A DNA stretch of 57,610 nt, taken from assembly GCA_000934665.2 (NCBI GenBank), contig JYFJ02002395.1, positions 1 to 57,610 on the forward strand, in the 5' to 3' direction. Shown in pieces: positions 13,414-51,746 of this stretch (the stretch's first letter is position 1; each line of letters opens with the position of its first letter). The position numbers were made by a program, and so were the translations under genes. This stretch comes from Catajapyx aquilonaris (lineage: Eukaryota). Below the pieces are notes generated by a model. That model was not told where the DNA came from. It made no database searches and saw only the letters and a list, made by a program, of their open reading frames with translations.

Positions 13414-13954
13414 TTTGGTGCAACATAGTGTGCCAACAGACAAATATTTCTTAGCAGAAATTATCATACTCTCATTATTCATCATCTGTGTCCTCCTCTA
13501 GGATCAAATTAATATCCAAGGGCAGTTGTGTATCTTGGAACTATTGTGTTTCAGTAGGACTGCATCCTTAGTCAGTGTCGTTATGAGAATACTTCTTCTG
13601 CAGTTACCCCTACTTCTTAATGGTGTAGGAGGTTTCCAGGCTTTTTTTCCCCCCAGGAAGTCATCGTCATCATTCCAGTTTAGTTCAAATATTTCTAGGA
13701 TACAGGTAGTGTGTACCCTGTAGCATCTGTAAGAAATGTCGAGTATAATCTGACACGTTAGGCTATAATTCATGTGAGAGCCTTGAACCAGAGAACGGTA
13801 CTGCTGCCGTAGCTAGAGTTTGTGCGTATCTCTCTCTTGAAGGATAGACTTGGGAGTTAAGTGAACTGGGTTGATAGGTCGATCACGTTGTCTTTATCTG
13901 ATATACAAATGCATCAAAGATTATCACTGTTTATCCCGTGGGGATCTCGTGTGG
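13414..13954 (+). repeat. About 540-bp recent direct duplication, copy 1
   Basis: Nearly identical to 15285-15826 (tttggtgcaacatagtgtgcc ... gggatctcgtgtgg). Confidence 0.95.
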
Positions 13955-13959
13955 TTGGT

Positions 13960-14280: not shown

Positions 14281-14755
14281 CCTACATCGTACGGAACCCA
14301 ACCGGCCGTATCCTAGCTTCACCTTCGTGCGCAATAGGGCGCTCATTCGATAGCATTGAGCACACCCCTGCTTCACCTTCGCTTTCGGCAGCATCCACAG
14401 CCCTTCTGCTCCACAAAGAGCTGAGCTGGCCACCTCGGAACCGGTGCCATTTCTCGCTCTCGACTATGTACTGAAGGCCATTGAGATGATTTGGCGCAAT
14501 TTGGAAACCCATCTTATCGCATGGTCTCGAGCAACCTAGCATACAATCAAGTTTCCCTCCAAACGGTACACTGTCCTTCTTTGTCACGTCTCGGAGCATG
14601 CGGTCAACGGCCTCGAGAGCTTCCTTCGGCGCCATTGGGGCCTCGTCCCAGATAATGACGTCGACAGAGATCACGTGTAGTTTCTCTTTCGATGTTAATG
14701 AGCGGTTTAATCTTAACGCAGGTTCAATGGCAGCCGAAACGCGGTGAGCATTTCT
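14281..14755 (-). mobile_element. Helitron Rep/PIF1 helicase fragment (copy B)
   Basis: AFRLPLNL, then VIIWDEAPMAPKEALEAVDRMLRDVTKKDSVPFGGK (PIF1 Walker B region). Frameshifted continuation CAKSSQWPSV. Confidence 0.85.
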
Positions 14756-15284
14756 CTCTTTTTGCAGCCAAGAGTAACATCTGCACTTCAGGATGCTGTC
14801 AGGCTTGTTTCTACCTTTGAACTTTCTTGCGCTCCTGAATAACTATGGTTAGATATAGGCCCTATGTGGGGCCCGGGGTTTAAGGACCTACATGGTCTGG
14901 AATAACCCCGTTAATATCTGACTAAGGTTAGTATGGCCGATAACTTTATTAGCTATCTGCCCGTCTGCTGCCTTTGTCATGTAGTTTTTTATGAGAGTAT
15001 AGAAGGACACACCGCAGTGCTATAAAACAGTTCTCCTTCATCTAAGCTTCATCCTTAGCGTCACTCTACTTTCCTTGTATGATCTTACAGAGCCAGAAAT
15101 ACACACAGGCAAAGGACCACTGATGTGATGGTATCGTCTCAGCTCCAGGGTTGCTCTCAAAGTAATTTCTGACAACAATGGAGCTGAAGAATATTGAAGT
15201 CTGAATACTTCAGTTCACGCATCGTCTTTTGCTGCCCTCACATATTATAAAGACATGTGAGAGGCGCTCTAAAAAAGGTGGTCT

Positions 15285-15826
15285 TTTGGTGCAACATAGT
15301 GTGCCAACAGACAAATATTTCTTAGCAGAAATTATCATACTCTCATTATTCATCATCTGTGTCCTCCTCTAGGATCAAATTAATATCCAAGGGCAGTTGT
15401 GTATCTTGGAACTATTGTGTTTCAGTAGGACTGCATCCTTAGTCAGTGTCGTTATGAGAATACTTCTTCTGCAGTTACCCCTACTTCTTAATGGTGTAGG
15501 AGGTTTCCACGCTTTTTTTCCCCAGGAAGTCATCGTCATCATTCCAGTTTAGTTCAAATATTTCTAGGATACAGGTAGTGTGTACCCTGTAGCATCTGTA
15601 AGAAATGTCGAGTATAATCTGACACGTTAGGCTATAATTCATGTGAGAGCCTTGAACCAGAGAACGGTACTGCTGTCGTAGCTAGAGTTTGTACGTACCT
15701 CTCTCTTGAAGGATAGACTTGGGAGTTAATTAGTGAATTGGGTTGATAGGTCGATCATGTTGTCCTCACCTGATATACAAATGCATCAAAGATAATCAGT
15801 GTTTATCCCGTGGGGATCTCGTGTGG
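15285..15826 (+). repeat. About 540-bp recent direct duplication, copy 2
   Basis: Nearly identical to 13414-13954. Confidence 0.95.
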
Positions 15827-15844
15827 ATGTTAATTTATGTTGCC

Positions 15845-16900: not shown

Positions 16901-18157
16901 CAAATGTAATACATGGGTAATAATTTTTTTTCCCACATCGGCGATTATGCATGATACATCATGAATTTGCTGTGGGAGTTTAGGGCCAGAACAAAATGGG
17001 TTGCTAACTTGAAACATTGGGCCCTTTTTGGACCGAAAGATGTCTATAGTGAGCGTTTTAATGGCATTACCTAGCTTTACGATTTTTTCCTTCGCACATA
17101 AATTTTTTTCAGGTATGAAGGAATAGGTATATAATATTATAATTATTTGAGGAATACAGGTGTGGGCTTTTGCATTTTGAAAAAAAAAAAAACTTGCTTT
17201 GGGGTGGTGAAAGTATACCATGGGATCCAAACAGGACCCCACGTTTCAAGTTGAGGGTTAAATGTATTGAAAATATATTGAAAAAAAAAACAAGTGATAT
17301 TACGAATATACAATCACGCAGTAAGCAAGAGTTTGGGATCATTTACCTTCGACTGTATGTCAGATGTCAGTAGTCAGATGTCAGTAACAACAGACTATGA
17401 GACTCCTTTCTTTTTCTGTAGCATTTAAGGGTAAAGTGTATTTTCCATGTGTTTAGACTAATGGCTGGCCAGCCCTTTCGTTAGTACGAGTATATTAATA
17501 TGTGTTGACCCTGCAAAAGCTGGTGGCAAACCATAAATTCAACCCTAGCGGAAAGGCGATGAAGATTGGTATGTATGTGAGAGAGGTGGTACTACGTAAA
17601 CATAACCTAGTGCGCACCCACGCTCGCGCAGTTCCACTGTTCGGACTCAATGTTGCCCGAGTTACTCCCCAGGGCCATTTTGTTTCTCCCCAAGCGTAGC
17701 GTTGGAAATAAGTGAATCGCAGTATAGGTTTAGGTTTATTATATCATTATCGACTTCAATTGGAATAGATACGGTAATCTTTCAAGAAATAATGACATGT
17801 GCAGACTTACAGATAGGCTATTTAGTGACAAATAATGCTCAGAATGCGCCTCCATTATATCAAAAAATTTGATACAAAGCCCGGGCTTAATTTGAAGCGT
17901 TGAGCACGTCACACTTGGTGATTGTTTGAAATCTACTTTATCATTAGTGTCAAAATTATTGCAATGAATCCTAACACCATCACCTGCACCATTTCCAAGA
18001 TAGTTGTGTGCACTAATTAAACTGTTGAAACTTATTTAAGCTATGCAATTAACAAATTTGGTCCTGGTGTTCATTCCTTGCTTGATGAAGTGGGTTGGTG
18101 CACCAGCTAGTATAGAGAAACAATGCCCAAGACTATTATACATATAGTAGGTTTTCG

Positions 18158-20907
18158 ACGATCTGTTTATATTAAACGGAGCGACCTATGGTGACACCCC
18201 AGGTAGTTTCACCTACTTATCTAAGAAGGGGCAAAGCACAATAGATTACATAATCGTAACGAAAGCCTTGACCTCTTGGGTGGCTGATTTTAAAGTAGTG
18301 AATCAAATTGGGTCAGATCATTTACCTGTATGTTTGACGCTCGAGGTGTCTAGTGCAGGGAAATCACAAGTAGAGACGAAACCAACTACTAAGATGTTTT
18401 TGAAGATTCCCGCGGATGGATTGAATTTTTTGGTGGACAAATTTAATGACTGTTTAATCGGTTTGCAAGACGACACTCTAGATAGGATGGCAGATGAAGT
18501 TGCAACCAAGATCCGCAAAGTATTGGTGGAAGAAGGCATATTGCGCCCTAGTAGGCCATACTTAGGAAAGAAAAACTCCAACCCCTGTTTTGATTCACAA
18601 TTGAAACAGTCACAAGGTCAGGTGAGAGAGCATTTACAAAAATGGCGCAAAACTCTGAACAAAGGTGATAGGATAATGTATGTAGATTCAACAAGATTGC
18701 ATCAAAAACTGGTCCAGGCAAAAAAAAAACTATATTTTTCAACTACAATCCAACTTTTATTAACTAGTAAGAATCCTAGGACTTTTTGGGATCTAATTAA
18801 GCGAAATACACGCCCCCAAATTCGCTGTGAACCACCGAAACAGATTTGGTTTCAATATTTGAAGGAGTTATTTACACTGGTAGAGACGCAAAGCTTGGAA
18901 ATAGCAGAAGTGAATATATATGGATGCCAAATACTAGATGCAGAAATCTCCTTGAGCGAAATCAAAAAGACGATCAAAACACGTAGGCCCGGATCAGCGC
19001 CGGGCCCAGATAACATTTCAAATGCAATGCTGGCAATCGAATCTATCGAATTGCAAAATATATTACAAATCATGTACAATAAAATATTGGATGGTGCTCC
19101 AATCCCCCAAAATTGGGCTCAAATTAAAGTAATCCCTATTTACAAGGGGGGTGATAAGGAATGTCCAGCAAACTTTAGACCGATATTATTGATAAACAAC
19201 GTACTTAAGTTATTAACTGCTATACTGACTGCTCGGCTGAATAAGTGGATCGAGATCAATCAAATTTTGCCTGATGAACAGGCCGGCTTTCGACAAGGTA
19301 GAAGTTGTGCTGACCACATTTTTACGCTGAATGTACTCATACAAAAATACATATCCCCCAAGGGAGGGAAGCTTTTCACCTTGTTTTTGGATCTGTCAAA
19401 GGCTTTTGATAACGTGAGACATGATTTATTGTGGTATAAGCTACAAAAGATAGGAATAGGTGGCAAGCTTCTCTCTGTTATTCAACGTATCTATGGGGCG
19501 GCACATGTTACAGTTGAAAACCATATTGGCTGTGTGCAAGTTACAAAGGGAGTTTTACAGGGAGATTCCTTATCACCTGTATTGTTCAATCTGTTTTTGG
19601 CAGACCTCAAAACAGTACTTATGCAATCAAATATACCTGGAGTTAATTTAGGGCCAAACACTGAAGAAATACATTTTGTGCAATTTGCAGATGACGTGGT
19701 TCTCCTGGCGCCTAATCAACTATATTTGCAAAGGAAAATTCATTTAATTGGGAATTACTTTAATGATTTAAAACTAAATATAAATATTTAAAAAACTAAG
19801 GTAGTAATTTTCAGGAAAGGGGGTATGCTCCCAAAAAACTGTAAGTTTCACCTAAACGGCGAGTTGCTGGAGATAATACCCAGTTACAACTATTTGGGGG
19901 TAGTATTTTCCAGCTCAGGTAAATTCCGGATGGCTGCAGAACAACTGAGAAGCAAGGGTAAAGCAGCGATAGCATCTTTGTGGCCAGTATTAACTAAATT
20001 AAAGGTAAGGCAAATTTCAACAGCCTTCAAGCTATTTGATTCCCGCATCGCATCAATTACTCTTTATAATGCATTTATTTGGGGACTTGAATATTTGGAA
20101 TTAATTGAGCAGATTCAAACCTTCTTCATTAAAAAGTTTCTAACGTTGCCTAAGAATACAGCGGGATATTTCGTTAGGCTGGAGACAGGTCGTAGACCTT
20201 TAGCATTAAAAATAATTAAACATCTGATAAGCTGGCTGGTTAAATTAGGAAATATACAGTCAACCTCACTAATTAAAAGAAGTCTGAAATATGCACTATT
20301 AAATTCCCAGTCCCACCCTATAAAAAGTTGGGCATGGCTAGCAAATCGAGAATTTAATAAAATGGGAATGTCCATCCATGGTTGGTTACAAAATATAGAG
20401 AATATATCCATCCAAAAGGTGCTAATCACATACATCGATGCAACGATTCAACAGGATTATGTAGACCTAGACAATTCAAAGAGATATGCCAACTATGTAT
20501 TACCTTGGTATTACGTAACAATTCTCCATTTCTAGAAAATTATTTAACCTACAACTTACCGCTACATTCAATTAGACTTGTAGCTAACCTCCGGAATGAA
20601 TCCGCATGGTTTTATATAAATGGATACAAAATACAGCTTGACTTAGAGAACTACTGTTCATTATGCAACCTTAAAGAAGAATTCACTATACACCATATGT
20701 TGTACATTTGCCCCTTTTTTTTCTGGCCCGAGGAGAACATTACTTATATCATGGCCTTCGGTCCCACCCGACAGATTAAGCTGGATTCTGGACGATATAC
20801 CAGCTCAGGAAATTTATAAATTATGTTTTTTTTAATAAAGCAAAATTATTATTATTAGAAAATGCTGATATTATATTATAGTAAGCCAATGGATAAATAG
20901 AAAAAAA

Positions 20908-21195: not shown

Positions 21196-22267
21196 GTAGG
21201 TTTTCGCAAATCACAAAATGTTACCACCCGTTATCCTTCAGAAGTATAACATTGTGTTAAAAATACTGCATTTTATTCAACTTGTATAAATACCAGTACC
21301 CAGTTGGTAAGCATCCGGATGTGGGACTCCCACATTTATAGTGATGGTTAATACTCATCAAATCACAATAATTATTGTTAACATGAATGGAAAAGCACTT
21401 AACCCTGTTCCCGCCCATGGTTCATTATGGTAGTATGATCATGCTACAATAGTTAAAAGTTTATTACAAATAGTTTTGACACTGAAAGCTACGCCCCGTT
21501 CTTTGTATGAACCCAGCCTAAAACACGCACAAGGGTAAGGTACACCTGGACCACTGATGGTATAGCCTCAGCTCCGGTGTTTCCGTCATATCATATTTCT
21601 GACAACGATGGACCCAACACCTATTGTCGCTGTGATGAATCTACACCTGGAGTCATGGACAAAATGGATTGTAACTCATCCTGTCTGGTTGCGGGCGCTT
21701 GGTGGATTTGTTTTCCATAGGTGTCCTATATGACTGGTGCTGTTGGAGGAATCCTGCAGGATAGGAACTCCCTCTTGGGTGCCCAGCTCTGCGGAGGTAT
21801 AATAATATATTGTCCACATGTTTCCGGTAGACTCCATTGCACTTGTCTTGTTCCTCTTGGCTCGGCTCCCATGTGTAACGAGGCTTTTGTGCGTTTAAGA
21901 GCAATTTATTAATATTGTTCATTATTGCACTGCACATGTCCTAGTGTCTACTGACTTATCTATTTGGGAAGCATATAATCATGGAAGTAATATTACATCT
22001 CCTTCATTTTGTCAGCTTACAAGTTACTTGGAAATTACAGTAATGGAACGTAAACAGTCAGTGTGTGTTATTATTCCCGTATCCCGTGTGTTACGTATTG
22101 AATGTCAGCTCTTGATGTCAGTCATAAGTTACACTTGCAAATTAATGACCACCAACATAAACAGGCTGTGTGTATTATTCGTCACTGGCAAGGGATTAAA
22201 AATGAGGGGAATGTCCGGGATTTTCTCTGACACACTATGAAGAGTAGGGTAACATGAAAACAAAGTA

Positions 22268-22945
22268 CAGGGTGATTACAAATGAATAGTATAATTACAA
22301 ATGCATATAGCTCCGTACCTATCAACCGCACATGAACGTGTTATACACCAAATGAAAGAGGAGGTTTTGAAGTTTATTTCATACCTTATAAATGTTCTAT
22401 ATGACTTCCCTTGATCACTCGAGAAACGTCGATCCGACAGTGCAATTCCTCCCATACTCGTGCCAGCATGTCCGTTGTCACTGACTCAACCGCAGCAACA
22501 ATGCGATGTTTGAGTTCATCCAGGGTTGTTGGCATCGGTGGCTCGTACACAGCATCCTTAACGTACCCCCAAAGGAAGAAGTCGCATGGCGTCAAATCCG
22601 GCGACCTTGGGGGCCAGCAGTAAAGCGACAAGTCTTGCAGGTCACTGCGACCTATCCAACGACGAAGGAGCACATTGTTCAGAAACTGGCGAACATCTGA
22701 ATGCCAGTGCATTGTTACTGCGGTTGAGTCAGTGACAACGGACATTCTGGCACGAGTATGGGAAGAATTGCACTATCGGATCGACGTTTCTCGAGTGACC
22801 AAGGGAAATCATATAGAACATTTATAAGGCATGAAAAAAACTTTAAAACCTCCTCTTTCATTTGGTGTATAACACGTTCATGTACGGTTGATAGGTACGG
22901 AGCTATATGCATTTGTAATTATACTATTCATTTGTAATCACCCTG
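22268..22945. mobile_element. Fold-back Tc1/mariner (Tc3-like) derivative with 237-bp inverted arms
   Basis: TA|CAGGGTG...CACCCTG|TA termini. Arms 22268-22504 and 22709-22945 are near-perfect reverse complements. The minus strand encodes a transposase C-terminus (HWHSDVRQFL..RWIGR..WPPRSPDLTPCDFFLWGYVKD.VY...GSHIEHL*). Confidence 0.95.
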
Positions 22946-23399
22946 TAATGGGATGAAGTCACCTCTAAATGAATTCCGGCATCAAGCTTACAATCATGCG
23001 ATTCAAACCCGCTGGAAGAAGTCTTCCATTCTGGGAACTTTTTCGCGATGATGGGAGCTCTCCTCTTATAGCCATCTTGTGGCCGCATATCTCGAAAGTC
23101 TTTCGCAAATCGTAAGAAATCACTTGAACAATTATCAATTAATACTCTGAATTATTCAGAGTCAGTGTAGGCTACTTCGAATTGTTGAAAGAGTGAATCA
23201 AAAGCCGTATGATCACCTTTTTTTTCCGCCCGATGATACAGGGTGCAATAATTGGTTTCCGTTTGATAATTTCCCTCAAAGCCATTAATAATGTTCCCCA
23301 CATTGTTCCCTATTTAATGACACATTGATCATCGCCTTGGTGCGAATAGTTCTCGAGATATGAGTCAAAGTATACCGGAATGTGTACCGTTTTTGCCCG

Positions 23400-27743: not shown

Positions 27744-28010
27744 CCCCCCGATGGTATCTCCACCTTATCGTGGTGGTGGGGTTTGCGTTTCTCCCGTGAC
27801 CCCAAGAGCTATGCCGGCGGTAGCTTCGTCTACTGGTAGGGCCACCCAAGCCGGACAGGTCTTTGGGATAGGAGACAGACTAAGAGAGATGCCAGTCTTT
27901 CCTCTCTTCTTTTCCCTCTTCGTTTCTCTCTCCATCTGTCCCACCTTTGCTTCTTCTTACAGCCAGATAGCCACAGTTGCTTTGGCTCCTTCCTAATAAA
28001 CCAAACCAAC
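27744..28010 (+). mobile_element. Short non-autonomous RTE-derived retroelement (RTE/BovB-like 5' region plus (CAAAC)n tail)
   Basis: 11-bp TSD cattttaggcg at 27733-27743 and 28011-28021. 5' part ccttatcgtgg..ggggtttgcg..gagctatgccg..agggccacccaagccggacaggtc resembles the conserved RTE/BovB 5' UTR. Ends aataaaccaaaccaac. Confidence 0.8.
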
Positions 28011-28869: not shown

Positions 28870-29011
28870 CAACCTTGTGGGCAATTATGTTTAAAACCAA
28901 GGAACCCTCCTCGTCCATGCTGGTGATGGGCAGATGGTCTTCCGGGCACACCAGAGGTGGGACCTTGCACAGAAAAGACTTGATGGCAGGATAGTGTGGA
29001 TCCAACTCGGG
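28870..29011 (-). pseudogene. Copied fragment of DUF229 gene exon 2
   Basis: Matches 44764-44904 with 6 substitutions and 1 indel (PELDP..PAIKSFL.KVPPLVCPED.LPITSMDEEGSLVLNI.AH). Confidence 0.95.
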
Positions 29012-30196: not shown

Positions 30197-32435
30197 ATGG
30201 ACGAAGCAGTTGTAAGTTCTACTCTTAACGTAGGTTTTGAATGGGAAGAACATGTGTCTCTTTCTTTATCACAAACTAGACCGTCTGTAGACGAATGTCA
30301 CATTGCATGTGTCGCTATATAAATTAAAATGGAAGTACTGACTCTGCATGCCCTAAGGACATGGCCTGAAATCAATTAATATGCTTGGCCTCATAAAATT
30401 CTGTTGGCTACGTTTGCATCGCTTTTGTCGTGTGCATTTGAAGCTTTATAGCGGCTACACGACCGCTTCTCTTTTTCTTAAAAGAACATGCTTTGTTTTT
30501 AACATTTACAAGATTGGTTGACAAATTAAATTTGCCAGGCGAACCATGTATTATTATGCAGTTTCTCTTGTCTGGGCGTATGGACCTAATCAAGATCCAA
30601 GTTCCTCCCTAATTATTTGCATGCTGCACATTGCATATCGTCAGTACGTACATGTACAGAATGGGTCGTACTTTAAAGGCGCTTTTACATGTGAACGATT
30701 TTACAAACGAAGCGGAGTGTAGTAACCAATATTGTTTGAGTTGAAAGTAACAATCGATTTTCACCTCAAACAATACTGGTTACTCGGGTTACGCAGCGTT
30801 GTTACCGCTCGGAGAAGACTTCGCTCGTCAAATCGCTCACATGTAAACGCAGCATAAATATGTCATAATAATTAGTGTTTTCTACGTTGTAACCAGCCCG
30901 TTCCAAATGAACAAGTGGAATGTGTTGGCAACATTTGTTGTTTACACTTCCCCTTTCCTAAGTTAGTCTAATGTCATTGGAATGGGATCCTCGGTTGCAA
31001 AGGTCAGTTAAAATTCCTACCAAGCCAAGCATACGGGGTAATGCAGAGTAATATCAGGCTGTCTTAGAATGTCCATGGTCATTAAGCGTAATTGTGAATG
31101 GCTGTTGTACATGAATGGGATCAAATAGTTCCGAGGAATGTTCGGCTGAAGCATTGAATCGGCTAAGATAATATTCATAAGTTATGTTTTTAAACAGTTG
31201 CCTATGACGCTTCTTCTGTTGGTGAAGTCGCAATGGCTGCCAACAATGTCTATGATAATGCTCAATTAGTGAGAAGAGTCTTACAAACTCCTGTAATTTT
31301 CTTGGCTTCTCCTAGGTTCCTTGCCATGCCCTCCTTAGGTCCAGTTTTAATCCAACCTTTCACAATGGCTCAAAAGCGCTATACTGCGCCAAACTGTTTC
31401 ATTTATTGCAATCAACAGTAATGATGGCGATTATACGTAAGTTGCACACCATCCATGCTGAACCGGACACTGTAATTAAATGTTAAGAGTCGGTTAAAAG
31501 TTTGGAGCAACTGGGTATTATAGTCACCGTGCCTCCTTCACTGGTCCGATCCTTTCAAACTTGCAGGGTGTTGAGGATTCTAAAGACATGAAGTACAACA
31601 GTTCGGATGAAGAGGACCCCGCATTTGTGGGCCGCAGCTCGGACAAGGAGAATGGGCCTAGACCCGAGGCGATCATCCTGCTATGCCAGCAGAGTGTAGG
31701 TGGAGGGGATGTCGCGCTCGATGCGGGAGAGAAAGAAGCTGTGATGCCATCGGAGGAGGCGAGCCAGGACTTTGCGGATGAGACTCCAGCAGGAGTAGGC
31801 ACCAAGAAGGTAGTTGCGCTGTCCGCCCTGGCCCCTTGCTTCTACCCCAGGCAGCATCACCAGCCCGCCATATTCATCGGGGACCTACGTCCTGCGGTGT
31901 ACAGGTTCCTCCCAGGCGAGAGGCTGCCGGATATTGACCCGTGCCTGACCACAGGGGAGCTCCAGAGGTCCAAGCCTCTCCTGAGCTCATGGTGGAGCGT
32001 GTGGGTGATCCACTCCCACCAGAAGAGGAACAGGTGGGGGGACAACCTGGCCCCCGTCACCTACATGCAGTCGCTGCCTGCCTTCCTGCGGTGAGAATCG
32101 TTAGGATTACGGATTACGAGAGAACAGGGTCATCATAATGAATATGATCTAAACACAATTATAGGCTGGACAGGGTATACAATGTAACGAGCCTAGTCTG
32201 ACAATAATAGTTTTAAAAATGCTTTTTGATGTTACATGTCCAGGTCATGGGAAGAACTGGGCGACCCGGGTCCCCTGACCACCTGCGGGCACGACTACGC
32301 TTGCTTCAGGCACGGGGTGAAGCCCATGTGGGAGTCGGACCGGAACAAGTACGGAGGACACTTCCGCATCCTGCTGGGGAAGAACGCTCCTCGGGACATG
32401 ATCAGGGACAAGTGGATGCAGAGCGTAGGCCTCAC

Positions 32436-32502
<67 letters not shown>

Positions 32503-33287
32503 CAGTCTTAAGAATCTTTGATCACCTGATGGTTGATTTGCCTTTCCTTTTCCGCAGCTTTTGTGCATCATTGGTGCTGGTTTTGGCTGGTACGGTATCC
32601 AGGTCACCGGAGCCATCGCAAGCTGCAGGCCCAGGGGGAATCGGATCGAGGTCTGGACCGAAGATTCAGACCAGGAGGTGGCCATCTTCCACATCGGGTG
32701 AGTTGGGCAAAACACTTTTATATGCTCTGATCTTTTTTAGCGAGGGTCCAAAATGACATCGCCGCTGTTGTTGTCATTGCTAAAATGACGTCAAAGGTCG
32801 TTCAGACTTGCTAAATATATCAGAGTGTAGCTGTTGCTTCGTTGCATTCTGAAATGAATTTTCCATTAATGACAAACTCTGGTTTTAGCTAATTATTATT
32901 AAAATGCAGGATTAACCAGAAGTGCTCAACTGAACATTTAAGCGATTCGGACTCATTTAGATGCGAGCGATGAAACCACTTGTTTGGGGGCAATGGTAAC
33001 AATCACGTTTCGCTCCCAAACAATTGACTTCATCGCTGCATATAGCGCTGATCAAATCGCTCAAATGTGCTCAAATGTGAGGCCGTAAATGTATGGAGAG
33101 GTCATTATTGAGAAGTTTGCTGTGCTGGACCGGATTAAACTGAAGATGGTTTCTGTTCCGTTGCAGGCAGCAGCTTAAGGAAATGTGGGATATTCCCAGT
33201 GGAACCAAGCTCTGCTACTACTGCCACACAGACATATTTGAGTGGGGCCAGCAGGAGGCCATGAAAAACCCTCGCTACCGGATCTGA
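30197..33287 (+). CDS. Divergent eIF4E-family cap-binding protein with long acidic N-terminal extension and PAM2-like motif (about 326 aa)
   Basis: Exons joined by hand, all GT-AG and phase-consistent: 30197-30211 (MDEAV, donor gtaagt; least certain exon), 31567-32090, 32244-32424, 32558-32697, 33167-33287 (TGA). Core reads KPLLSSWWSVW...RWGDNL...DYACFRHGVKPMWESDRNKYGG...DKWMQSLLCIIG...VTGAIASCRPRGNRIEVWT...HIG...YCHTD, collinear with the eIF4E fold. Alternative start at ATG 31588. Confidence 0.9.
30677..30854. mobile_element. PIF/Harbinger-like MITE (gcgtttacatgtgagcga family), in the first intron of the eIF4E-like gene
   Basis: TAA on both flanks; imperfect TIRs ..tttacatgtga.cgattt / aaatcgctcacatgtaaac.. 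Related copies at about 32930-33070, 35965-36063, 49054-49184 and 50197-50320. Confidence 0.8.
32436..32502. repeat. (AAT)n microsatellite in an eIF4E-like intron
   Basis: Pure taa repeats. Confidence 0.98.
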
Positions 33288-33633
33288 TGGGATGCAGCGA
33301 CTCTCTTCCTCCTGTTCTGGTTGGCAGCTAGAAAAAAGAAAAAAAAATCTGGAGTACTGGGACGTTGGTGTTCCCCGCAGGAATTCAGGTGTTTTTTTTT
33401 TGCGTGTGTTTTTTGTTATCTGTGTATGTGTGGGAGTGGATTGGTGCGGGGTTGAATAATTGTACTAGTTTGATGCTGAATGAGAATGTGTGTGTGATTA
33501 TTGGCAGTGTGAGAGTGTGAGAATGTGCTTGATGATTAGAGTTTTTTTATTTGTGTCAATTTAAATGAGACATTATATGGTTGTAACTTTATTTTGGTGT
33601 CATAAAAATGAATATTGTAACAGTGTGTTCCTC

Positions 33634-33864
33634 TTGCATTTCTCCCATGACCCCCGAGAGCTATGCCGGCGGTATAGCTTCGTCTACTGGTAGGGCCACC
33701 CAAGCCGGACAGGTCTTTGGGATAGGAGACAGACTAAGAGAGATGCCAGTCTTTCCTCTCTTCTTTTTCCTCTTCGTTTCTCTCTCCATCTGTCCCACCT
33801 TTGCGTCTTCTTATAGCCAGATAGCCATAGTCGCTTTGGCTTCTTCCTAATAAACCAAACCAAC
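33634..33864 (+). mobile_element. Second, 5'-truncated copy of the RTE-derived short element
   Basis: Highly similar to 27783-28010. A third small fragment lies on the minus strand near 39872-39918. Confidence 0.85.
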
Positions 33865-35837: not shown

Positions 35838-37092
35838 TTAAGCAGCACATCCGCTGCATCTCTTCCCCTTTTTGCCTTCTTCTTCTCCTCTCAGGACAAC
35901 TGCAGGGTAATTTTCTGCAGTTAGTTTAGCGTAACTTTATAACGTAAATATGTTCATGAACTTATGCCGCGTTTACATGTGAGCGACGTACATCGCTAGT
36001 GAAAGTAACAATTGTGGTAACAATGCCCCAAACAATTGCTGATCAAATCGCTCACATGTAAACTTATGCATTTATTATTGTCACTCATAAATAACTCATA
36101 AATAATGCAAAAAAAATTACTTAACATCTCAAGGTGCTTTCAAAATTTAACGCATCCATTTTCATAGGAAATTTATAATAACTGACCAATGTCATCATCA
36201 GATTCGTTAGTGACAATTGAGTAGGTGTCTCCCCGTAGTTCAGCCATTAAACTGTCTTGGAAAGCAAGACCAGCCAGCCGGAAGAAGAAATCTGCAACAC
36301 CATCCCCAGTCTTGTTGGACACTAGCCACAACTCGGCTCCTAAATGATCGGCCACTTCGCTTCCATTCCGAAGTGCATCCTGATACACCTTGGAGACTTG
36401 CTGAACCAAAAAAAAAAAAAAAAAATGTTTTTAGCGGAGAAACAACACTTTTGTTCCAGTTCCGATGGCTGTGTCACCGAAGAACATACCAGGGCGTCAC
36501 TCTTGGTCCCAACAAGGAATATCATAGGTCGATGGCCCAAGTTGTCTTCAATAGCGACATGGTACCAGCTCACGGTGTGACGCAAGGTTCGAGAATCCGT
36601 ACTGTCATACACCAGTACAACAACTGGAAGTAAATGCCAACACATTATACAAGACACCTGCCTTTACATTGGTAACAACTTGACCAACTGACCCTGGGCA
36701 GTGTGATAAAATGATGCTTTCTGACGATGCAAATTCTTCCCAGAAGTGTCCCACATGTGAACGTTGAAAGGCATACTCATCACATCGAATCGCTCCATTT
36801 GGAAGTCCACTCCTAGTGTTGGTTTGTAGTTGACTGAGAATTTGTTGTGGCAGAAGCGATGGACCAGAGCAGTCTTTCCGGTGGCACAGTCGCCCAGGAG
36901 GAGGACTTTGCATATACGCAGAGCACTACGACCGAGGCCTCGTCCGCTCCGCCTGAATATCTCAACCTCAGGTGAGAAGTCACCTTGCTGGTACGGACTT
37001 GATTCTGGAACCTGTGGTGGCGGAAACGTTGACACCTGACGATCAGCCCTGGCATTTTTCTGCATCATCCTGTACATTCCCCACGGATCCAT
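35838..37092 (-). CDS. Rab34/Rab36-like small GTPase with divergent switch II (about 269 aa)
   Basis: Exons 37092-36693, 36623-36490, 36400-36187, 35899-35838, all GT-AG, total 810 nt in frame. G1 GDCATGKT, G2 YKPTLGVDF, G3 WDTSGK, G4 GTKSD, G5 VSNK. The N-terminal extension, RFC..KF..NYK.T.GVDF.MERF and FFRLA..AF are typical of Rab34/36. C-terminus KKGKRCSGCAA*. Confidence 0.85.
35965..36063. mobile_element. Shortened MITE of the same family, in Rab-like intron 3
   Basis: gtttacatgtgagcga ... tcgctcacatgtaaac inverted termini. Confidence 0.7.
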
Positions 37093-38019
37093 AATTTGGG
37101 CCTGAATATTTTTCTACCTATAGGGAAGAAGCTGGTTTGCCATCATTCTTGGTTGTAATCTTCACACTGTTTTACGTAACACCTTCAGCCTTCGGGAAAA
37201 TTAAAAACATCTCGGAGAGACATGTTCTTGCCACATCTAAATATTGTTCCCAAGGTTATCGCCACCTTGCTTCATGCACATGAACTTACCCTACTTCCCC
37301 TTATAAAATACTCTGATACATACCAATGTAATGTTATTGCTTCAAAAGGCATCAGCACGACCACGAATTGTTTACAGGTGTCGCTATGGATATTTGTTAA
37401 TTGATATTTTAATATTGTTATGAAATACTGGAAGTGTACTGTACAAGTTGGACAATAATAATAATGGGCCGTTACGTCACAATGTGTTAACACAATTTTA
37501 ATCCGTCAGTATCAGAGAACATTTTCTTGCAGAACCACTTACTAATCCTGACCCCCTGATCAGGCAGGCAATTTCGAAGAAGCATCATGTGACATCACTC
37601 TTCAGCAGTCCGCCATCATTGTCCAATACAACTCTTCCCCAGCGTCGAAAGCAAAATCTCTCTCTCAGGTCAACCACTGATAGAAACATAGGCACCGAGC
37701 CCCGACCAAACGAGTCCAGCCAAAAATGTCGACCCCCACACTAACCAAGCCCAACGACATTCACAGCATGTCGTCAGTCGCACATCTTGCATATGACAAT
37801 CCTACGTACCTGTGACGGCTGAGAGCTCAAAGCGATTTTTGCAGTTTGCTATGAAGTACATTCATGCTACAGACGCCACTGAAAACTAGGCGGCTGGTTA
37901 TACATATTCATATGATCTCAATTAAGCAAAGACATACAATGCTCAAGAAATAGAGCAAATCATCAACAATCTGGCGTACTAACCAACATGCAGGGAGCAT
38001 GAGAGGCGGATATCACCAT

Positions 38020-42270: not shown

Positions 42271-45239
42271 CTACCTGAGACTCTGGGGTTGACTAGTTGC
42301 CCCACTGTTGTCCTCTGCTCCTTGCCCGCCTTCCATTTCCTCCTGCACAACTGTGGGCTTGTCTTTGCACAGACAATACAGTCTGAGTACAGCCGCGTGC
42401 TTGAGGCAGCTGGCCTGCGAGCCGTACCTGTTGATTCTGTTCACATCCCCGACCACTTCGAAAGGATCGAAAGCTGATCTCTGCAACAGTGCTTCAAGGT
42501 GCGCACTGTTGGGGGAGGTCTCCACCGAAACCCGCAGCTGCACTACCAAAGACGTACTGGACGGTGAACTACCGGACACAGCGTAGCTGGGGAGCACCAC
42601 CACTGCGGTCAGCACTCGCTAGAAATAGATTGCGTTACACAAGCACATTACGTACTGGATACGAAAAAGGTACCTTCAGCTGCAACATGTAGCACCATTC
42701 GGAGATTGGCTCCAGCATTGCATTCACGTGATCCACAAGCGCCTCAGCTGCCCTGATCACGTCGTCGTCATCATTAGGCAATGGCTCCTCCGCCACGCAC
42801 ACGCAGTATTCGGGCAGCACGCCCGCATCGGCACACGTTCTGTTCTTGCTCACTTGCTGCCTCCACAGCGGGATGCCATACCTGGAGGACGACTTCTCGG
42901 TCACGGGCTGCTCGAAGGTTCGCTCCAGAACATCCCGCAGCATCTCATGGATGTCAAACCAGGAAATCAGCGAGTGGGAATTGGAGACGAGGGTGGGTTT
43001 CAGATGTGGGTGAATGGCTTGCATCCACTTTGGGATGATTATGCTGAGGAAGGGCATGCGCTCCTCTAAGCGGCCATAAATCGTAGAGCGGATGGCATCG
43101 AATCTGACGAGGAAAAGACAAGACAAGTGTTTATTGGATGTTGTCCCTAATAATACTTGTTGAAAATTAGCACATGCCAATTTAATTACAGTTACTGATT
43201 AATCAACAACTACGAGGGTTAATTCCGGGAACTCTGAACACTACTTGACCAACCGACCTATTTCCATGGTCTCCCATGACAATGAGAAGGGTCTTGTCCA
43301 GCAATCCCCCATCCACAGCGCCCTTCAGCATGTCCATCATGTCCTGGTCGATGACTTGAACTTGGTTGATGTCCCCATGGCTGACCTCGGACACAAAGGA
43401 AAACCCAAAGTATCGCCCCTCTTCTTCCCTCTGGGCCCGGAGGAACCTCTTGGCATACTCGAGGATCAGCTGGTGCTTGGGTCTTGACCCGAAGCACAGG
43501 TAGCGCCCTTTCCTGTGCACCGTGGTGTTCTCCGAGGCCATCCAGAAAGGACGCATGTAGTAGTCAACAGGCTGCTGTTTGAACCCCAACGTCGGGTAGT
43601 TGAACAGCGCGTATTGGGGCATGTCTTCCGCATACATTGTGGCATACCTGTACGTACAAAATATGTAATTGGCTGGACTCCACTAGACTGACTAAGTACT
43701 GACCCTGCATCTCTGAAAACATGCCAAAGAAGTGGCATCTGGTCCATGTATCGGTGGGCAAACTCCCTCCTGGGCCACTTGAACTCGTGGTGAGCATCGT
43801 TGGTCGACACTCTCAGGCCAGTCAGGAGGGGAATGATGTTTGGAAAGGTGTTGTCGCCAACTTTTGTGATGCCTCGCATCACAACCGCATCCAGCTTCTG
43901 AGTCAGGTACGCGTAGGTTTTGGGCAGTTGCCGGATAAAATTGGGCTGGGACATGGAATCAACTGCAAGGATAAATATTGATGGGGGCGGAGGGTGGTTG
44001 GGTGACATGGTGAGCGGAGGAGACGGAGTGAACGAGATGGGTTTAGGGAAAATGTGGACGTACTCGTACCACATTGTGGCGCCAGAGACGCACTGGACTA
44101 GACAAGTGTCACCTTTCAGGCGATGAGTTCCACGCAGGACCTGAAGAGAAGCATACACACATGTAGCTAACCGTGCAACTGAAATAGCCTCGTCTGGATA
44201 TGCAGACGAGGCATTGAACTGCTTTGTATTCATGACTTCACATGAGCAACATATCAGAGCAATTATATTCAATTTGATGCAATGAAAGGGATACCCCCAA
44301 CAGCTGGCTTATGTAACGATGATTGACAGGCAATTATGCGCATGAATCAGCTGCTGGGATCATTCGATACCAAGCACTTCCTAAGTGTATTACTCACTAC
44401 TGACATGTCAAATGTGCAATCCAAATTACGCACCTTATAAATCTTTCATGTCACGCAAACACAACACGAAACAAAAACATCCTCAAACACACAATGCGCA
44501 CATGCAATAATATCGAGGGGTTAGTCACTTATGAAGTCATTCCGACAGAAGTCCGTCGTACACTATACTGTGACTAACCCTTCGAATAAAATACATGCAA
44601 TAAACATAAAAAATTAACATGCAAAAAATTAAGAACAGGCAAACCCACACAGTCTACATTCCTATGCGTTGCTAACCTGCGGTGGACCATACGCCAGGTG
44701 ATTGTCGTCTTCTAACCAGACCTCGTAATAGGTGCACCTGACATGTGGAGCTTTAACCTTGAGCAACCTGTGGGCAGTTATGTTTAAAACCAAGGAACCC
44801 TCCTCGTCCATGCTGGTGATGGGCAGCTGGTCTTCCGGGCACACCAGAGGTGGGACCTTCCGCAGAAAAGACTTGATGGCAGGATCGCGTGGATCCAACT
44901 CGGGAAGGACACACTCGGAGTCACTCCCGTTCTTCCCCGATCCGCGTGACACCCAGTTGTCATTCAGGTGAAATCTGCAGAGAAGTACGGTTAGTTCAGG
45001 CCGCATGAGTTGGGCATGTACTGATATCGTTACCTGGAAAAGTATCTGGCGTAAAATTCCCTCTGGACTTGACCCTGATGCATCACGTAGAGCACGTAGG
45101 CCAGTCCCAGAAGCACCAGGAGGAGGTACAGACGCAGACAACGGCGGACCCAGCGCGGGTGAAGCTTCAGCATGCATCGCCAATCCCTGGACGAGGACTG
45201 GAAGCAGTGGGACAGCAGAGGGGACGGGGTCAAGGCCAT
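42271..45239 (-). CDS. DUF229-family type II membrane protein (alkaline phosphatase/sulfatase-like superfamily)
   Basis: Exons 45239-45034, 44974-44677, 44140-43704, 43647-43258, 43103-42674, 42618-42271 with GT-AG junctions. N-terminal TM segment (LYLLLVLLGLAYVLYV). Motifs ILAVDSMS..NFIRQLPKT, KVGDNTFPN, GYATMYAED, GF..QPVDYYMRP, VMGDHGNRF, GRLEERMP, RTCADAGV..EYC.C, R.NRYG.Q..C. Start codon and last exon uncertain. Confidence 0.9.
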
Positions 45240-47710
45240 GGTGGGAGGAAGGGGATGGGGGTGAGAGGAAGGGACCAAAGGGGAAGTGTCCGACGAACAC
45301 ACCCTGCGAAAAGGAGAGCAATGAGAATTACGATGCATCTGGCAACAGGAAATCCGACGTACTACAAAATTGCAATACAAGCGCAGGAAAAAATAATCGT
45401 CATCAGTCGATGTAACCTTGAAGCGATAATGCCTTCCTGACAGGCTTTGACTAGTGACATGTTCTTTGTCGAGTTTGGCAGACCCATAGTCGCACTTTTA
45501 AAATACACTCAATATTTCAATAATGCGCAGTTGTGACAGTAAAAATGTAGAATCACTCCTGATGTTCACGACAGTACATTAAATAGACAACTAAACGTCG
45601 CCCTGTGCAGTCAATAAATCAATTACACTGCAACTGTTCCCTACATACAGTTCAATTAATAGCTTAAGTATTAATTAATAATTCATATGACAATGGGCAG
45701 TATGTGATAAGGTCAAGGTTTACAATCCCTAATATTGAACAGGACTTGCCGTTTAAACATTAGTGATGCAACCACCTCCTAGCCCTTATTAGCTACGGTC
45801 GTAAAAAGTTTTAACTGTTGGAGCGAATATCCTCCAATTGAGAAAAGGAAGTTGATGCGGACCAAGGTTGCTGTCCATTCCGGTGCACATACTAGCTCTA
45901 TTCCTACCAGTTCAGATGAATCGTCACCATTTCAACAACAATTGCTGAGTGTCGATTTAGATGCTAATATACTAGCCTCTATAACTGAGAATTCAGCGTC
46001 ACAGCAACATTAACGCTTATTATTACCACATTTTATATACATTATTTGCATACACAGCCTGCACATATGTGTCCGTCAGCGAGTCATACAAAGCATTTCA
46101 TTTATTTATCACATCATTAATCAGAACTGCTCCCTTTCTGCGAGATAGATGGGGACAGGTGCGGACATAAGTACTTCGGGGCTTCGGTTAATGCAGACAA
46201 AATATTTGATTACAGGACTGTATGACAAAGCTGCATCGGAAGCAGCTGATATTTGATCCCAGAAATTACCACTGCACATTACATCTTTAAAAAAAAAAGC
46301 GGCAACATGAGACCTCAAGGATTATCCTGCTGGACTGTAGCCAAATCCATGTCGCAGAGCAAACTACTGGAAATAAAATCTGGGGGGTCCCGCAGGTGCA
46401 GCGGTTATCAAACATGCATCCGACAGTAATCAATCGAATGCTAATAACATGAAATGAAGGTGTAATTGGTGTGCCTTCGGGCGACCCCAAAAAAAAAAAA
46501 AGTTAATCACATGCTTCGGGCTGATCCATAATGAATCCGCTACATGATCACCCACAAAAAAAAAAAAAGGAATACAGAATTATCTGCAATGAACTATGAA
46601 ATTATCTCTCACGCAATGAAATCCAATTTCACATTATTTGGGCTGCGGAATTATTCGCAAACGTACACCTCCTGTATTAACACATAAATAGAAACATTCC
46701 TCGCAGGTAGTGGGGCAACATGTCCCTGCATTCCAAGACTAAAAAATTTAACGAGAAATTCTGACATGTCGCCTCAAGGCTGCGCAAGTTTCGCACCTGG
46801 CACAGTCTTGGTAATTGCTGACGGTGAAGTACTTTGCAAGCACGGTTAACGCAGTAAATATTCCATATGTTGACTACTGCATGAAGGCCAAGGAATTCAT
46901 CAATACTGTGACACAGAGCAATTTGGCCCAATTATTTACCGCCGGCCGCAATTCGGAAACGGCTGGCAAAATATTATTCCGAACCCTTGAGGAACATACG
47001 CATTTTTCAACCCGACGAAACCGAAGTTATTAAAAATAATGCGAACAAATTGACGTGACTTCACGACTTGCTTGTAGGTAACCAAAGTCGACCCACAATT
47101 TTGGTCCGCCTTTGTCCTGCGGATGCTCGTAAATATTCAACCGCAATAAATTCCTGACCCGCTGTTACGCACGCTCATAAATTACTGTTCCAACTACCCG
47201 GTATCATCACACGTTGTCTCATTTTCACATCCGAAATTACCCCCCTAATTAGCATACACCGACGCTCCCTCATAATCCCTGGCTAAACTGTGCATGTCTT
47301 GGACACAACCAATTTTTATATTATTAAACCCCTGCCTGACCTCCTGAGCATAATGCCCCACCTGATGCCCAGCTAGTCCCCCTTCCCGTACCCGGTATGG
47401 CGGTACGTCTCCCTCTCCACGGACCTGGAACATACAGTACCTCATGCCCTGTGAAGCGTATCCATGCCTGGAACGGTCGCCATCGACCCTCCCTTCGACT
47501 GGTGGTGGTGGCTACCTAGTTGTCCGTCCCCTCCTTCCTTCCTTTCCTTCCACAGCCGGCCACACACTGTCCCTTCCCCCTGCTGATCAATGCCGGCTCA
47601 CAGGAAGCTTCGAGAGGGGGCCACCAGCCGGGTGGATGGAACCAAAGAGACACACACACACAAAAAGGGAGGGCTATTTATATAGGCCTATATAAAAAAA
47701 AGAGTGGGAA

Positions 47711-48385: not shown

Positions 48386-49053
48386 TAGCATCGCAGCTGT
48401 GGATTGCATGTCGAGAGATCACCCCCCACAGCTCATGGCAACGCAGATTTCCATGGCAACAGGGTGTGCGAAGAACGGCTCTACTGCCATAGTAATGATG
48501 ATGTTGATGAAATTGGATTTCGATTCGAAGCGAAGCAGATTCAGCCCAACTGCTGCTGGCTTCGCAAAAATGAGGACGAGATGAATAATGTTCTGTTGCC
48601 GACTCTTTTATTCCGGTGAAATTGAAAGTGAGGATAACAAGACGAAACATTTCCTTTTTTAAATTATTTTAATTATGAGCTCTTTTTTTTTCCCTTCTTC
48701 TCCATCATCACAACAGGTAGCCGTGAAACACTTTGGAACAATATCGGCCATAACTTGTAACAAGCCAAAGACACTGTTCGACTATTATGCAACGACCTAT
48801 ATAAACTCTTACAGTCGGAAGTTTTTTAACACTATACGGGAAAAAATATGGTACGTACGTAGTCCGGAGATATGTTATTCTATGCCATATGACTTCTTTT
48901 TTTTTTACTAAGCTTGGAGGAATTTGTTGGAAAACAGGTACATACAACAATGCGCTACCTGAAAAAATTTTACAGCAGTAACAGACGCAATGTTTTAACA
49001 ATACCTCAGCAGATGAAAAGTCCCAAGTTGAATGGAAATTATGATGATAATAA

Positions 49054-49184
49054 AGGTGCGTTTACATGCGAGCGAATTGACGAGCGAAATCTTCGTGTGG
49101 GCTACGTAACCGAAGTAACCGATGAGGCAAAAATCACCTCGGCGACGATTTCGCTCGTCAAATCGCTCACATGTAAACGCCAAG
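49054..49184. mobile_element. PIF/Harbinger-like MITE (same family as 30677-30854)
   Basis: TAA flanks; gcgtttacatgcgagcga.ttgacgagcgaaatc / gatttcgctcgtcaaatcgctcacatgtaaacgc. Confidence 0.8.
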
Positions 49185-49645: not shown

Positions 49646-51746
49646 TTATTTTCCGTTTGCTTCTTGCCCACCGTGCGGTTTGGCAGTAGGATCGAGACCA
49701 TGCTGCTTCATCTGGACCGCCACATCGAAAAGGTAATCATAGCATTCGCACCTGGAATATACACATTCGAATTACTTATTCGCAACGAGACTAGTGGATT
49801 CGACCTACATGGTTTTGGCCTGTTTCCAAGTTTCACCCCAGACGTAGACTCCGTGACGCCTGACCAACACGGCACTGCAGTGCGGATTGTTCTCCATAGC
49901 CTTATGCATCGACTCTTTCAGGTCAGCCTCGAAACAAGTGTTTTCAATGATGGGTACCCGAAGAGTCTCATCGAACCTGTTGTACCGACCGAGAGAAGGA
50001 TTCCAAATACCCTTGATCATCTCAAGGTGGGTCACCACAAACTCGTTCCCCGGATACAGCAGAGTGGCCATTACAGCACTCTTCGAGTGAGTGTGGATCA
50101 CACATCCAGCCTGCCGCACTGAAAAATCGGAAGAACATTAGTTGTAACAAAAATTCTGAATCTGGAAATAATAAGCAACAATGCTTAAAAAAAGAGCCTA
50201 CGTTTACATGTGAGCCATTTGATCAGCAACGCAGCTGAGCAGTGAAATAAATTGTTTGGGGGCGCAAAAGTAACATTTGCGTTTTGCCCCAAACAATTGG
50301 CTTCATCGCTCAGAGATGCTCATGGCTGTGCATTATTTTTCTTACATGTGGTATTCTGTAACACTTCTACTAATTACGTACTGTGTCAGAGTTACGGCGA
50401 CCAGGGCTCCACGCCAAACTAATTACGTACAGTACAACTTCACTAGACACACAAGCATGTAAAGGCACCCTAGTTAATTATATTAAAAACTTTCTCGTAA
50501 AGTTTCTAAGAAGTAAGATAATTCTTTAAGTTTAAAAACAGGGCCTCAACATCTATCCTGCCATGTAAAAAAAATCATTTGGGTTTCACTGATTAGATAT
50601 AAGGGTCCAAAGTCCAACTGGTGGCACACAGGCAATCATGTACTCAAATTGGCTGCCGGGTCACTACAGAGCTGTTCTTAATTATATTCAGAAACGTATC
50701 AATCATTAAGCAGGTATGAAAGGGAACATGTAATTTTTGCCCACTTGTACGGCTCGGATAGGCCTTGTTCATAAAGGAACTTCCGTATGTCTCGCAATAA
50801 TTATGGCAAGATGTTGCATTAAATTACGCCGCACAAGAAAAGGTGCTGTGTCCGTAACAATATAATAACACCGTATGTTGAAAGCTGCCAAAATAATATT
50901 TTACTGCAGAATTACGGTTGATTAATATTTGTCATGTTATATTACATTATGGAACCTGACGTTGAGCCATGTTGCCGTTACAAGTCATTCAGATAGTGTT
51001 AAAGGCAAATGCGTAACACTGAAATCTACTCAGCATTCCTCATGCATTAGAAGCTAACATATCCACTATCATAACATTCAGCAACGAGGTAAATATATTT
51101 TTTTTAAACCAACAATCCGTAATTTGGTCAAGAAACGCACAAGATTCGCTTTTAAAAAATATTCACTGAAGACCATAAAATTTCTCTGCAAAGCATTACC
51201 AACTGTGCGTACATGTGTATGCACACATGAAGAGTGGCGTGCACTGGCTCTTTTTCAGCTTCTTGGCAGCGGGTGGGCAGGAGATGTCGCGACCCTGCAG
51301 GTCCTGGACGAAAAGATCATCACCTTCAAGCCTCTCCTTCTGAACACCAGACGGGGCAATGTAAATTGAGGGCCTGAAATAAATCACAAATAAAATCCAG
51401 CACCACTTATGTGCAACACAATCTAGTGTGAGCGAACCCATGTTTGATGCTGATTCCTCCTCCAGTTCCAGTGACCCATCCGAGGTGGTAAAACTGACGG
51501 CATAGCTCGGGAATCAACAAACGGGGATGCTCCTGAAAGTAAGCCGGGTTAGCTTCGGACTAATAACAATGCAACATTGCCCGTGTCAAAGGGCGTACGC
51601 TCTCCATACGGGTAACCAGCATGGGGCGTACACTTGTCCTATGTACACATGAGTGTGGTACACCCCCAGCCATGCCATTTTCCTGCCCATACCTTGGCCA
51701 CGAGCTCCTTTCCCTGCAGCTCCGCAGCTGATGCGACAGTCGCCAT
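49646..51746 (-). CDS. APIP: Methylthioribulose-1-phosphate dehydratase (APIP/MtnB; methionine salvage), 241 aa
   Basis: Exons 51746-51693, 51532-51438, 51373-51213, 50118-49809, 49751-49646 (726 nt, in frame). Motifs [102 protein letters not shown]. Confidence 0.97.

Follow-up and report, generated by a model that had tools for sequence, protein, structure and literature searches.

In the closed-loop model of translation, eIF4G bridges the cap-binding protein eIF4E and PABP, which binds poly(A). The described systems closest to the gene considered here are certain trypanosomatid eIF4Es, with the PAM2 motif of Leishmania eIF4E4 binding the PABC domain of PABP1 (crystal, nuclear magnetic resonance and affinity data, in the relevant sections of PMC6379680) and T. 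cruzi eIF4E3 binding PABP1/2 (in a passage of PMC11754739), and also LARP1, whose DM15 region binds the cap and whose PAM2 binds PABPC1 and which, in the parts of PMC7797073 and PMC11754739 that deal with it, is suggested to close mRNAs at their ends in a repressed state. As of 2024, the section of PMC11754739 on these proteins gives PAM2 in an eIF4E as reported only for trypanosomatid eIF4E3 and eIF4E4, and within the open full-text literature, with subscription journals outside, we likewise found, among the papers listed, PAM2-bearing eIF4Es only in trypanosomatids and none among animal tissue-specific paralogues. We set these systems beside an eIF4E-type gene on contig JYFJ02002395.1 of Catajapyx aquilonaris, analysed as one stretch of 57,610 nucleotides (the window). 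The original prediction for this stretch, which rightly named the trypanosomatid precedent, was of a metazoan eIF4E paralogue carrying a PAM2 motif in its N-terminal extension and so perhaps able to bridge cap and poly(A) tail directly. We find this interpretation to be partly supported, with the observation beneath it confirmed. Our preferred reading, held with modest confidence, is that the locus encodes a real, divergent and lineage-restricted class I type eIF4E in which the PAM2-like motif is unproven and probably fortuitous.

The gene model comprises four exons at 31588-33287 on the forward strand, and all three introns run from GT to AG with pyrimidine-rich acceptors. Exon 1 (31588..32090, +) opens with the ATG and encodes an N-terminal tail (residues 1 to ~127) and the first core strands (residues ~128-167) up to the donor CG/GTGAGA, where the slash marks the splice boundary. 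Exon 2 (32244..32424, +) carries eIF4E core with a W197-E198 pair and aligns with human eIF4E residues 88-132, exon 3 (32558..32697, +) carries further core with R252, R257 and W261 and aligns with human residues 134-179, and exon 4 (33167..33287, +), placed by acceptor, frame and open reading frame (ORF) only, supplies the C-terminal 40 residues and TGA. The joined coding sequence of 945 nt translates into 314 residues followed by TGA. The peptide of interest, which the original prediction had placed at 31813..31848, is there on the forward strand as the codons GTT GCG CTG TCC GCC CTG GCC CCT TGC TTC TAC CCC, giving VALSALAPCFYP as residues 76-87. Its frame is the only open forward frame at this position, lying within a 198-codon stop-to-stop ORF (31498-32094), and between 31588 and 31968 it contains no stops, against six and four in the other two forward frames.

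Base composition follows the same boundaries. Exon GC lies between 0.52 and 0.62 and intron GC between 0.23 and 0.41, around a window mean of 0.42; GC steps up from 0.44 to 0.61 at ~31590 and back down at 32095, so that the whole tail behaves as the remainder of exon 1 does. At codon positions 1/2/3 the GC values are 0.66/0.45/0.64 in residues 1-74, 0.68/0.47/0.77 in residues 75-127 and 0.52/0.46/0.81 in the core, the second position being lowest in both tail parts and in the core, as it is in the window's other Pfam-matched coding ORFs. A candidate acceptor (ttgcag/G) ends at 31566, upstream of the ATG at 31588, and an extra upstream exon, untranslated or coding, is therefore possible. No RNA runs matched 31450-33450; the four runs that did match are DNA contigs from one study and may be the source of the window. 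Two contig sets aligned to the locus were both DNA and free of splice joints, and one of them touched only a repeat in intron 3. Taken together, the open frame, the splice sites and the GC pattern indicate that the locus is a genuine four-exon gene.

Several repeats lie within the gene or close to it. About half of intron 2 is a pure (AAT)n microsatellite of ~22 units (32437-32502), at which the contigs of the DNA runs break. Intron 3 holds a copy of a short interspersed repeat (32965-33068) that recurs at 50206-50311, 30808-30873 and 49037-49180, and here the summed depth of the DNA contigs is several-fold higher, with many loose ends. Downstream, a dispersed repeat copy at 33634-33864, 94.8 % identical over 231 bases to another at 27783-28010, occupies part of the presumed 3' untranslated region (UTR) and contains the first AATAAA 3' of the stop (33849..33854, +).

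The assignment to the eIF4E family comes chiefly from the two central exons, and our external Pfam, structure and homology searches were run exon by exon. Pfam IF4E (PF01652) matches exon 2 with an E value of 1.4e-8 (35.1 bits, above the cut-off of 28.7; profile positions 51-93) and exon 3 with an E value of 1.4e-6 (28.6 bits, profile positions 95-140), so the two jointly span positions 51-140 of the 158 in the profile. Amongst solved structures in the PDB, human and mouse eIF4E are the best matches of both exons (E ~2e-7 for exon 2 and ~2e-6 for exon 3), with Drosophila, nematode, 4EHP, yeast and plant chains ranking below them, in agreement with the family membership given in the original prediction. 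Exon 1 has no Pfam family matches, and its end aligns weakly to yeast eIF4E across the expected strands (HMMER, E ~1). For exon 4 no eIF4E chain was matched at E<=10; when it is laid out ungapped and judged by eye, its sequence presumably parallels the C-terminal end of class I eIF4Es, and the His marking the boundary of the core is part of the match.

By alignment offsets, W136, W139, W150 and W197 are equivalent to human W43, W46, W56 and W102, and E198, W225, R252 and W261 to human E103, W130, R157 and W166. Lys-159 and Lys-162 are replaced by Arg (R257 being the equivalent of K162), Arg-112 by His and Trp-113 by Phe. The equivalence of W150 (32035..32037, +) to the cap-stacking Trp-56 is drawn from the weak yeast alignment just mentioned together with spacing. 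Class I eIF4Es are recognised by Trp at the Trp-43 and Trp-56 positions, and both are Trp here (W136 and W150). Set against the roles of cap-contacting and docking residues, Trp-43 and Trp-56 included, that are given in the corresponding section of PMC1260017, the protein looks like a class I type eIF4E paralogue with an apparently intact cap pocket, since the Trp, Glu and Arg positions that contact the cap are kept. Grip on the 7-methylguanosine (m7G) cap would be retained through the two stacking Trp residues, the Glu and the basic residues that contact the phosphates, and it is the conservation of these three elements that leads to the prediction.

The surface on which eIF4G and the 4E-BPs dock appears less well preserved. 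The docking consensus is (S/T)VxxFW, with Val-69 and Trp-73 (PMC1260017, the part on docking), and the corresponding segment here, S162-L-P-A-F-L167 (32071..32088, +), departs from this class I pattern. The Trp-73 position is taken by L167 if the offset of 94 from W150 is used, or by R168 under the offset of 95 from the exon 2 alignment, and the closest Trp is W170 (32248-32250), two to three residues downstream. In human numbering, Glu-132 is in addition replaced by Gln and Leu-131 by Met. We infer from these substitutions that canonical docking of eIF4G and 4E-BPs is weakened or changed. The dorsal docking helix would be remodelled, Leu standing in for Trp-73, and this would make a specialised or regulatory cap-binder likelier than a general initiation factor. 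This loss of Trp-73 is an additional feature, absent from the original prediction, and it matters irrespective of PAM2: a cap-binder with an intact pocket and Leu at Trp-73 is a candidate competitive repressor.

The tail that precedes the core is of mixed character. The original prediction had called it acidic and disorder-like, which holds for residues 1-74 (31588..31809, +): 16 Asp and Glu stand against 7 Lys and Arg, and with a mean hydropathy of 0.419, under the boundary value of 0.457, a charge/hydropathy plot groups this part with disordered sequences. By the same measures the description does not extend to residues 75-127, in which the motif lies; their net charge is zero, and the plot groups them with folded sequences. 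Exon 1 was also modelled from its single sequence with AlphaFold2. The model, which is alignment-free and hence uninformative, has a mean predicted local distance difference test score (pLDDT) of 36.4, with values under 50 at 160 of the 167 residues, and, with the same reservation, it places neither helix nor strand at the motif.

Relatives of the tail were sought widely. A phmmer search with exon 1 (167 residues) against 1,835,955,588 representative proteins returned no matches at E<=0.001. In a word-indexed protein search with the 198-residue ORF, restricted to near lengths, 132 candidates shared words and none of the 132 scored, and exon 2 is so divergent that, among the longer proteins of the index, none had as many as three 5-residue words in common with it. 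Amongst metagenome contigs, none of 107 pattern matches to exon 1 was a relative, and one locus (L001) raised by the exon 2 scan was rejected as a 22-residue chance match to one seed pattern that is otherwise unlike eIF4E. The ESM Atlas offered no usable look-alike for exon 1 or for residues 62-105, and a tblastn comparison of the spliced protein with the window returned its own exons and no paralogue. No orthologue was thus found in the protein, metagenome and Atlas collections searched, and the gene is either young and fast-evolving or from a lineage that is poorly sampled or unannotated in them. On the former view, the ~130-residue tail would be an extension of recent origin and rapid evolution, for which no relatives could be detected.

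These results bear on whether the peptide is ever made. It could be that the tail is untranslated, being 5' UTR or intron upstream of ~31851, or that the locus is an unexpressed, decaying duplicate. A candidate alternative 3' splice site, seen by direct reading and unscored, would favour the first of these: a pyrimidine tract with two AGs at 31849-31854 (+), the first at 31849-31850 (cccttgcttctaccccAG/G), sits directly 3' of the motif codons, and its use would skip the motif. The absence of the exon 1 protein from two very large collections that include animal proteomes, an exon 4 with no detectable eIF4E similarity and a first polyadenylation signal that lies inside a repeat would suit either version. 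Set against this are the intact ORF of 314 codons over four exons with its conserved functional residues, the coding-like GC and codon-position pattern from 31588 onwards, and an in-frame ATG at 31588 with a purine (G) at -3 and no in-frame ATG upstream of it. Moreover, residues 1-140 contain just one further Met, M53, and a start there would still include VALSALAPCFYP. We consider this explanation improbable.

A number of observations count against our view that the motif is fortuitous, and they are best taken together. All four PAM2 anchors are present in VALSALAPCFYP, with Leu3, Ala7, Phe10 and Pro12 falling on L78, A82, F85 and P87; the original prediction had named the first three, and Pro12 can be added to them. 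The consensus in the section of PMC7356810 on this motif is LNxxAxEFxP, where Phe10 is the main determinant, a residue bulkier than Ala is not accepted at position 7 and Asn4 serves to stabilise a turn, and with S79 at the Asn/Ser4 position the full pattern of L78, S79, A82, F85 and P87 is matched. The likeness to human Paip1 that the original prediction had pointed out also stands: the PAIP1 PAM2, LSVNAPEFYP in the part of PMC12102759 that describes it, is identical at 7 of 10 positions (L-S-x-x-A-P-x-F-Y-P). Such a match is rare by chance. An ELM-style PAM2 regular expression, on which our chance test was based, occurs once in the whole protein and once more in the window's 115,216 six-frame residues, and it matches only 493 of 200,000 shuffles of residues 1-135. 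There is also the nature of the protein to consider. PAM2 motifs are almost confined to proteins of mRNA metabolism, and this raises the prior for a cap-binding protein, a class acting at the mRNA 5' end in which a PAM2 makes functional sense. Loss of the docking Trp would likewise suit a protein that uses another partner.

Data from a deep mutational scan that probed PAIP1 against the PABC domain of PABPC1 (PMC12102759, sheet 12 of supplement 1) belong in part to the same side of the argument. In the matrix for the first peptide, the residues of the motif at positions 5 and 6 are not disfavoured: Ala scores 0.216 where wild-type Val has 0.137, and Leu 0.080 where wild-type Asn has 0.099. The motif core scores 8.30 in this matrix, against 8.81 for wild-type PAIP1, and is the top site in the protein; of 20,000 shuffled tails, 15 reached 8.30 when Cys was treated as neutral and 114 when it was treated as the worst residue. 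The authors' averaged matrix gives a different picture, with 3.23 for the motif, 2.62 for wild-type PAIP1 and 4.18 for a Trp-rich strand of the eIF4E core, and over the ten core columns the score of the motif is reached by between 518 (Cys neutral) and 2912 (Cys worst) of 6000 shuffles. As the averaged matrix contradicts that of the first peptide, ranking the core strand above the motif and PAIP1 itself below it, we rejected the scan matrices as evidence of significance. What the scan does show is that the Ala5 and Leu6 substitutions are compatible with binding, and it gives no reliable significance.

The case for a fortuitous motif is made by several other results. The caveat attached to the original prediction, that Cys replaces the usual Glu before Phe, is borne out: PAM2 position 9 is Cys, and in the scan this position accepts V, A, S, E and T, with Cys outside the assayed residues. 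Of the two Pfam comparisons that had been proposed, IF4E gave the matches in exons 2 and 3 described above and PAM2 (PF07145) gave none, either at E<=1 on the 198-residue ORF and E<=0.01 on exon 1 or at E<=10 on a 34-residue piece and on residues 1-134, bearing in mind that the HMMER filters drop most matches with E above ~0.1 and may thus hide a weak one. The half of the tail that contains the motif is not acidic and is the more hydrophobic of the two, rather than a clearly disordered context, and shuffles often reach the score of the motif in the averaged matrix. We judge the peptide to be a good formal match and an unproven candidate, and a fortuitous resemblance to be somewhat more likely than a working PABP dock.

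That the motif does work, docking on the MLLE domain of PABP so that one polypeptide holds both the cap and poly(A)-bound PABP and closes the mRNA loop, we regard as possible though on balance unlikely. The complete anchor set, the rarity of the match by chance, the retained cap-binding residues and the altered eIF4G-docking motif would all be in keeping with it, as would the class of the protein, and there are precedents in trypanosomatid eIF4E4/eIF4E3 and in LARP1 (in the respective passages of PMC6379680, PMC11754739 and PMC7797073). Against such a dock stand the unmatched Pfam PAM2 profile, the Cys at position 9 with its place outside the scan matrix, the loss of significance under the averaged matrix, the hydrophobic local context and the candidate acceptor whose AG at 31849-31850 directly follows the motif. 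The motif is furthermore a single copy, where the extensions of kinetoplastid eIF4E3/eIF4E4 have two to three (in the section of PMC11754739 on their architecture).

If the dock were real, its combination with the altered docking surface would carry further consequences. Given that the Trp-73 position is Leu, a clamp between cap and PABP might work without eIF4G and would then be likelier to store or repress mRNAs than to activate them, and the loop closure without eIF4G that the original prediction envisaged gains some plausibility from the apparently missing docking Trp. In its fullest form the proposal is that an animal lineage independently evolved a PAM2-bearing eIF4E together with loss of the docking Trp, producing a direct cap-PABP clamp that excludes eIF4F, and this we hold to be more doubtful still than the working motif by itself. 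Such a clamp would amount to a closed loop independent of eIF4G that stores or silences a group of mRNAs, in the germ line for instance. Were it true, this would be the first PAM2-bearing eIF4E outside the trypanosomatids and a convergent variant of theirs, it would mean that direct cap-to-tail clamps arise repeatedly, and it would provide a natural tool with which to separate loop closure from recruitment of eIF4F.

The same residues admit one further explanation. L78-S-A-L-A-P83 can be read directly as LxxLAP, a motif that is named as a PHD motif in a passage of PMC3135610, in which case the segment could be a target of HIF prolyl hydroxylase and act as an oxygen-dependent degron instead of docking on PABP. 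Six residues of which three are fixed make a pattern that turns up very often by chance, and nothing else at the locus suggests hypoxia signalling, so we give this idea hardly any weight beside the fortuitous PAM2-like match that we prefer.

The surroundings of the gene are informative mainly as to its origin. An N-acetylglucosamine-6-phosphate deacetylase gene (AMDHD2-like; 53532-55346, +) was identified by Pfam and protein search, and when proteins of 116-371 residues are searched, the best matches of its first large exon are 55-59 % identical and come from vertebrates, a bivalve and arthropods. The metazoan origin assumed in the original prediction is supported by this exon, with its best matches in vertebrates, molluscs and arthropods. 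Pfam also revealed a Ras/Rab-type GTPase exon (36664-37113, -), a class II aldolase (APIP-like) exon (49805-50137, -) and a fragment of a family-11 glycosyltransferase in an ORF of the window. A DUF229 (PF02995) gene at 42635-44308 (-) is split over three ORFs of differing frame, whose matches run back to back along the profile (positions 83-214, 213-344 and 344-493); two of the ORFs overlap by ~215 bases, and there are either very short introns or frameshifts. Just 5' of this gene lies an ORF at 44662-45327 (-) with no Pfam match, and part of it (44764-44904) is 95 % identical to a 142-base piece at 28870-29011, 2.6 kb upstream of the eIF4E gene, which looks like a duplicated fragment.

Mobile and repeated elements are present as well. 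A LINE-type (long interspersed nuclear element) sequence at 18151-20535 (+) has ORFs of 546 and 247 residues, with a reverse transcriptase match, a weak endonuclease match and one stop between the two. PIF1-like helicase fragments found by Pfam at 10201-10662 and 14282-14842 (-), possibly the remnant of a Helitron, sit in a locally duplicated block (13414-13957 against 15285-15829, 92-97 % identical). At 22266-22947, the arms of an inverted repeat of 239 bases (95.8 %) surround an ORF (22386-22772, -) that has no Pfam match and whose C-terminus we take to resemble that of a mariner-type transposase. A tRNA scan of the window found no genes.

How, then, does the gene compare with the systems already described? 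With trypanosomatid eIF4E4 and eIF4E3 it shares an eIF4E core that follows a long N-terminal extension with a PAM2, the peptide here being a candidate one, and in those proteins the direct contact between eIF4E and PABP bridges cap and tail (according to the relevant parts of PMC6379680 and PMC11754739). The trypanosomatid extensions have PAM2 in two to three copies that are kept throughout the trypanosomatids, in the portion of the literature just cited, whereas there is one copy here; their motifs show Asn and Glu, as is usual (in Leishmania, MNPNATEFMP), whereas this one has Ser and Cys; and the docking Trp position is Leu in the present gene. Homology to the eIF4E3/eIF4E4 extensions was not detected, since the phmmer search of exon 1 against the 1.84 billion representatives gave 0 matches at E<=0.001, and the likeness between tails with no detectable homology would have to be convergent. 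The closest relatives of exons 2 and 3 are instead the metazoan class I eIF4E-1 proteins of human and mouse (PDB 1ipb, 1ej1), with which the Trp residues at 43, 56, 102 and 166 and Glu-103 are shared. From these the present protein differs in a tail that is ~100 residues longer, in SLPAFL for (S/T)VxxFW, in His, Phe and Gln for R112, W113 and E132, and in having no site of the Ser-209 type by eye.

Amongst animal proteins, the nearest functional analogue is LARP1, which likewise joins a cap-binding module and a PAM2 in one protein; it differs in belonging to an unrelated family, in binding the cap through DM15 rather than an eIF4E fold and in being specific for terminal oligopyrimidine (TOP) mRNAs, as set out in the LARP1 passages cited at the outset. 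The PAM2 of PAIP1 (human residues 124-141 in the part of the source that delimits it) shares the rarer Ser4, Pro8 and Tyr11 with the peptide; it differs from it in the Glu at position 9, and PAIP1 is an eIF4G-like scaffold protein and not a cap-binder. The tissue-specific eIF4E paralogues of Drosophila and other animals, described in sections of PMC13733232, PMC3382400 and PMC4388691 as lineage-specific class I duplicates with divergent N-termini and specialised partners, complete the comparison.

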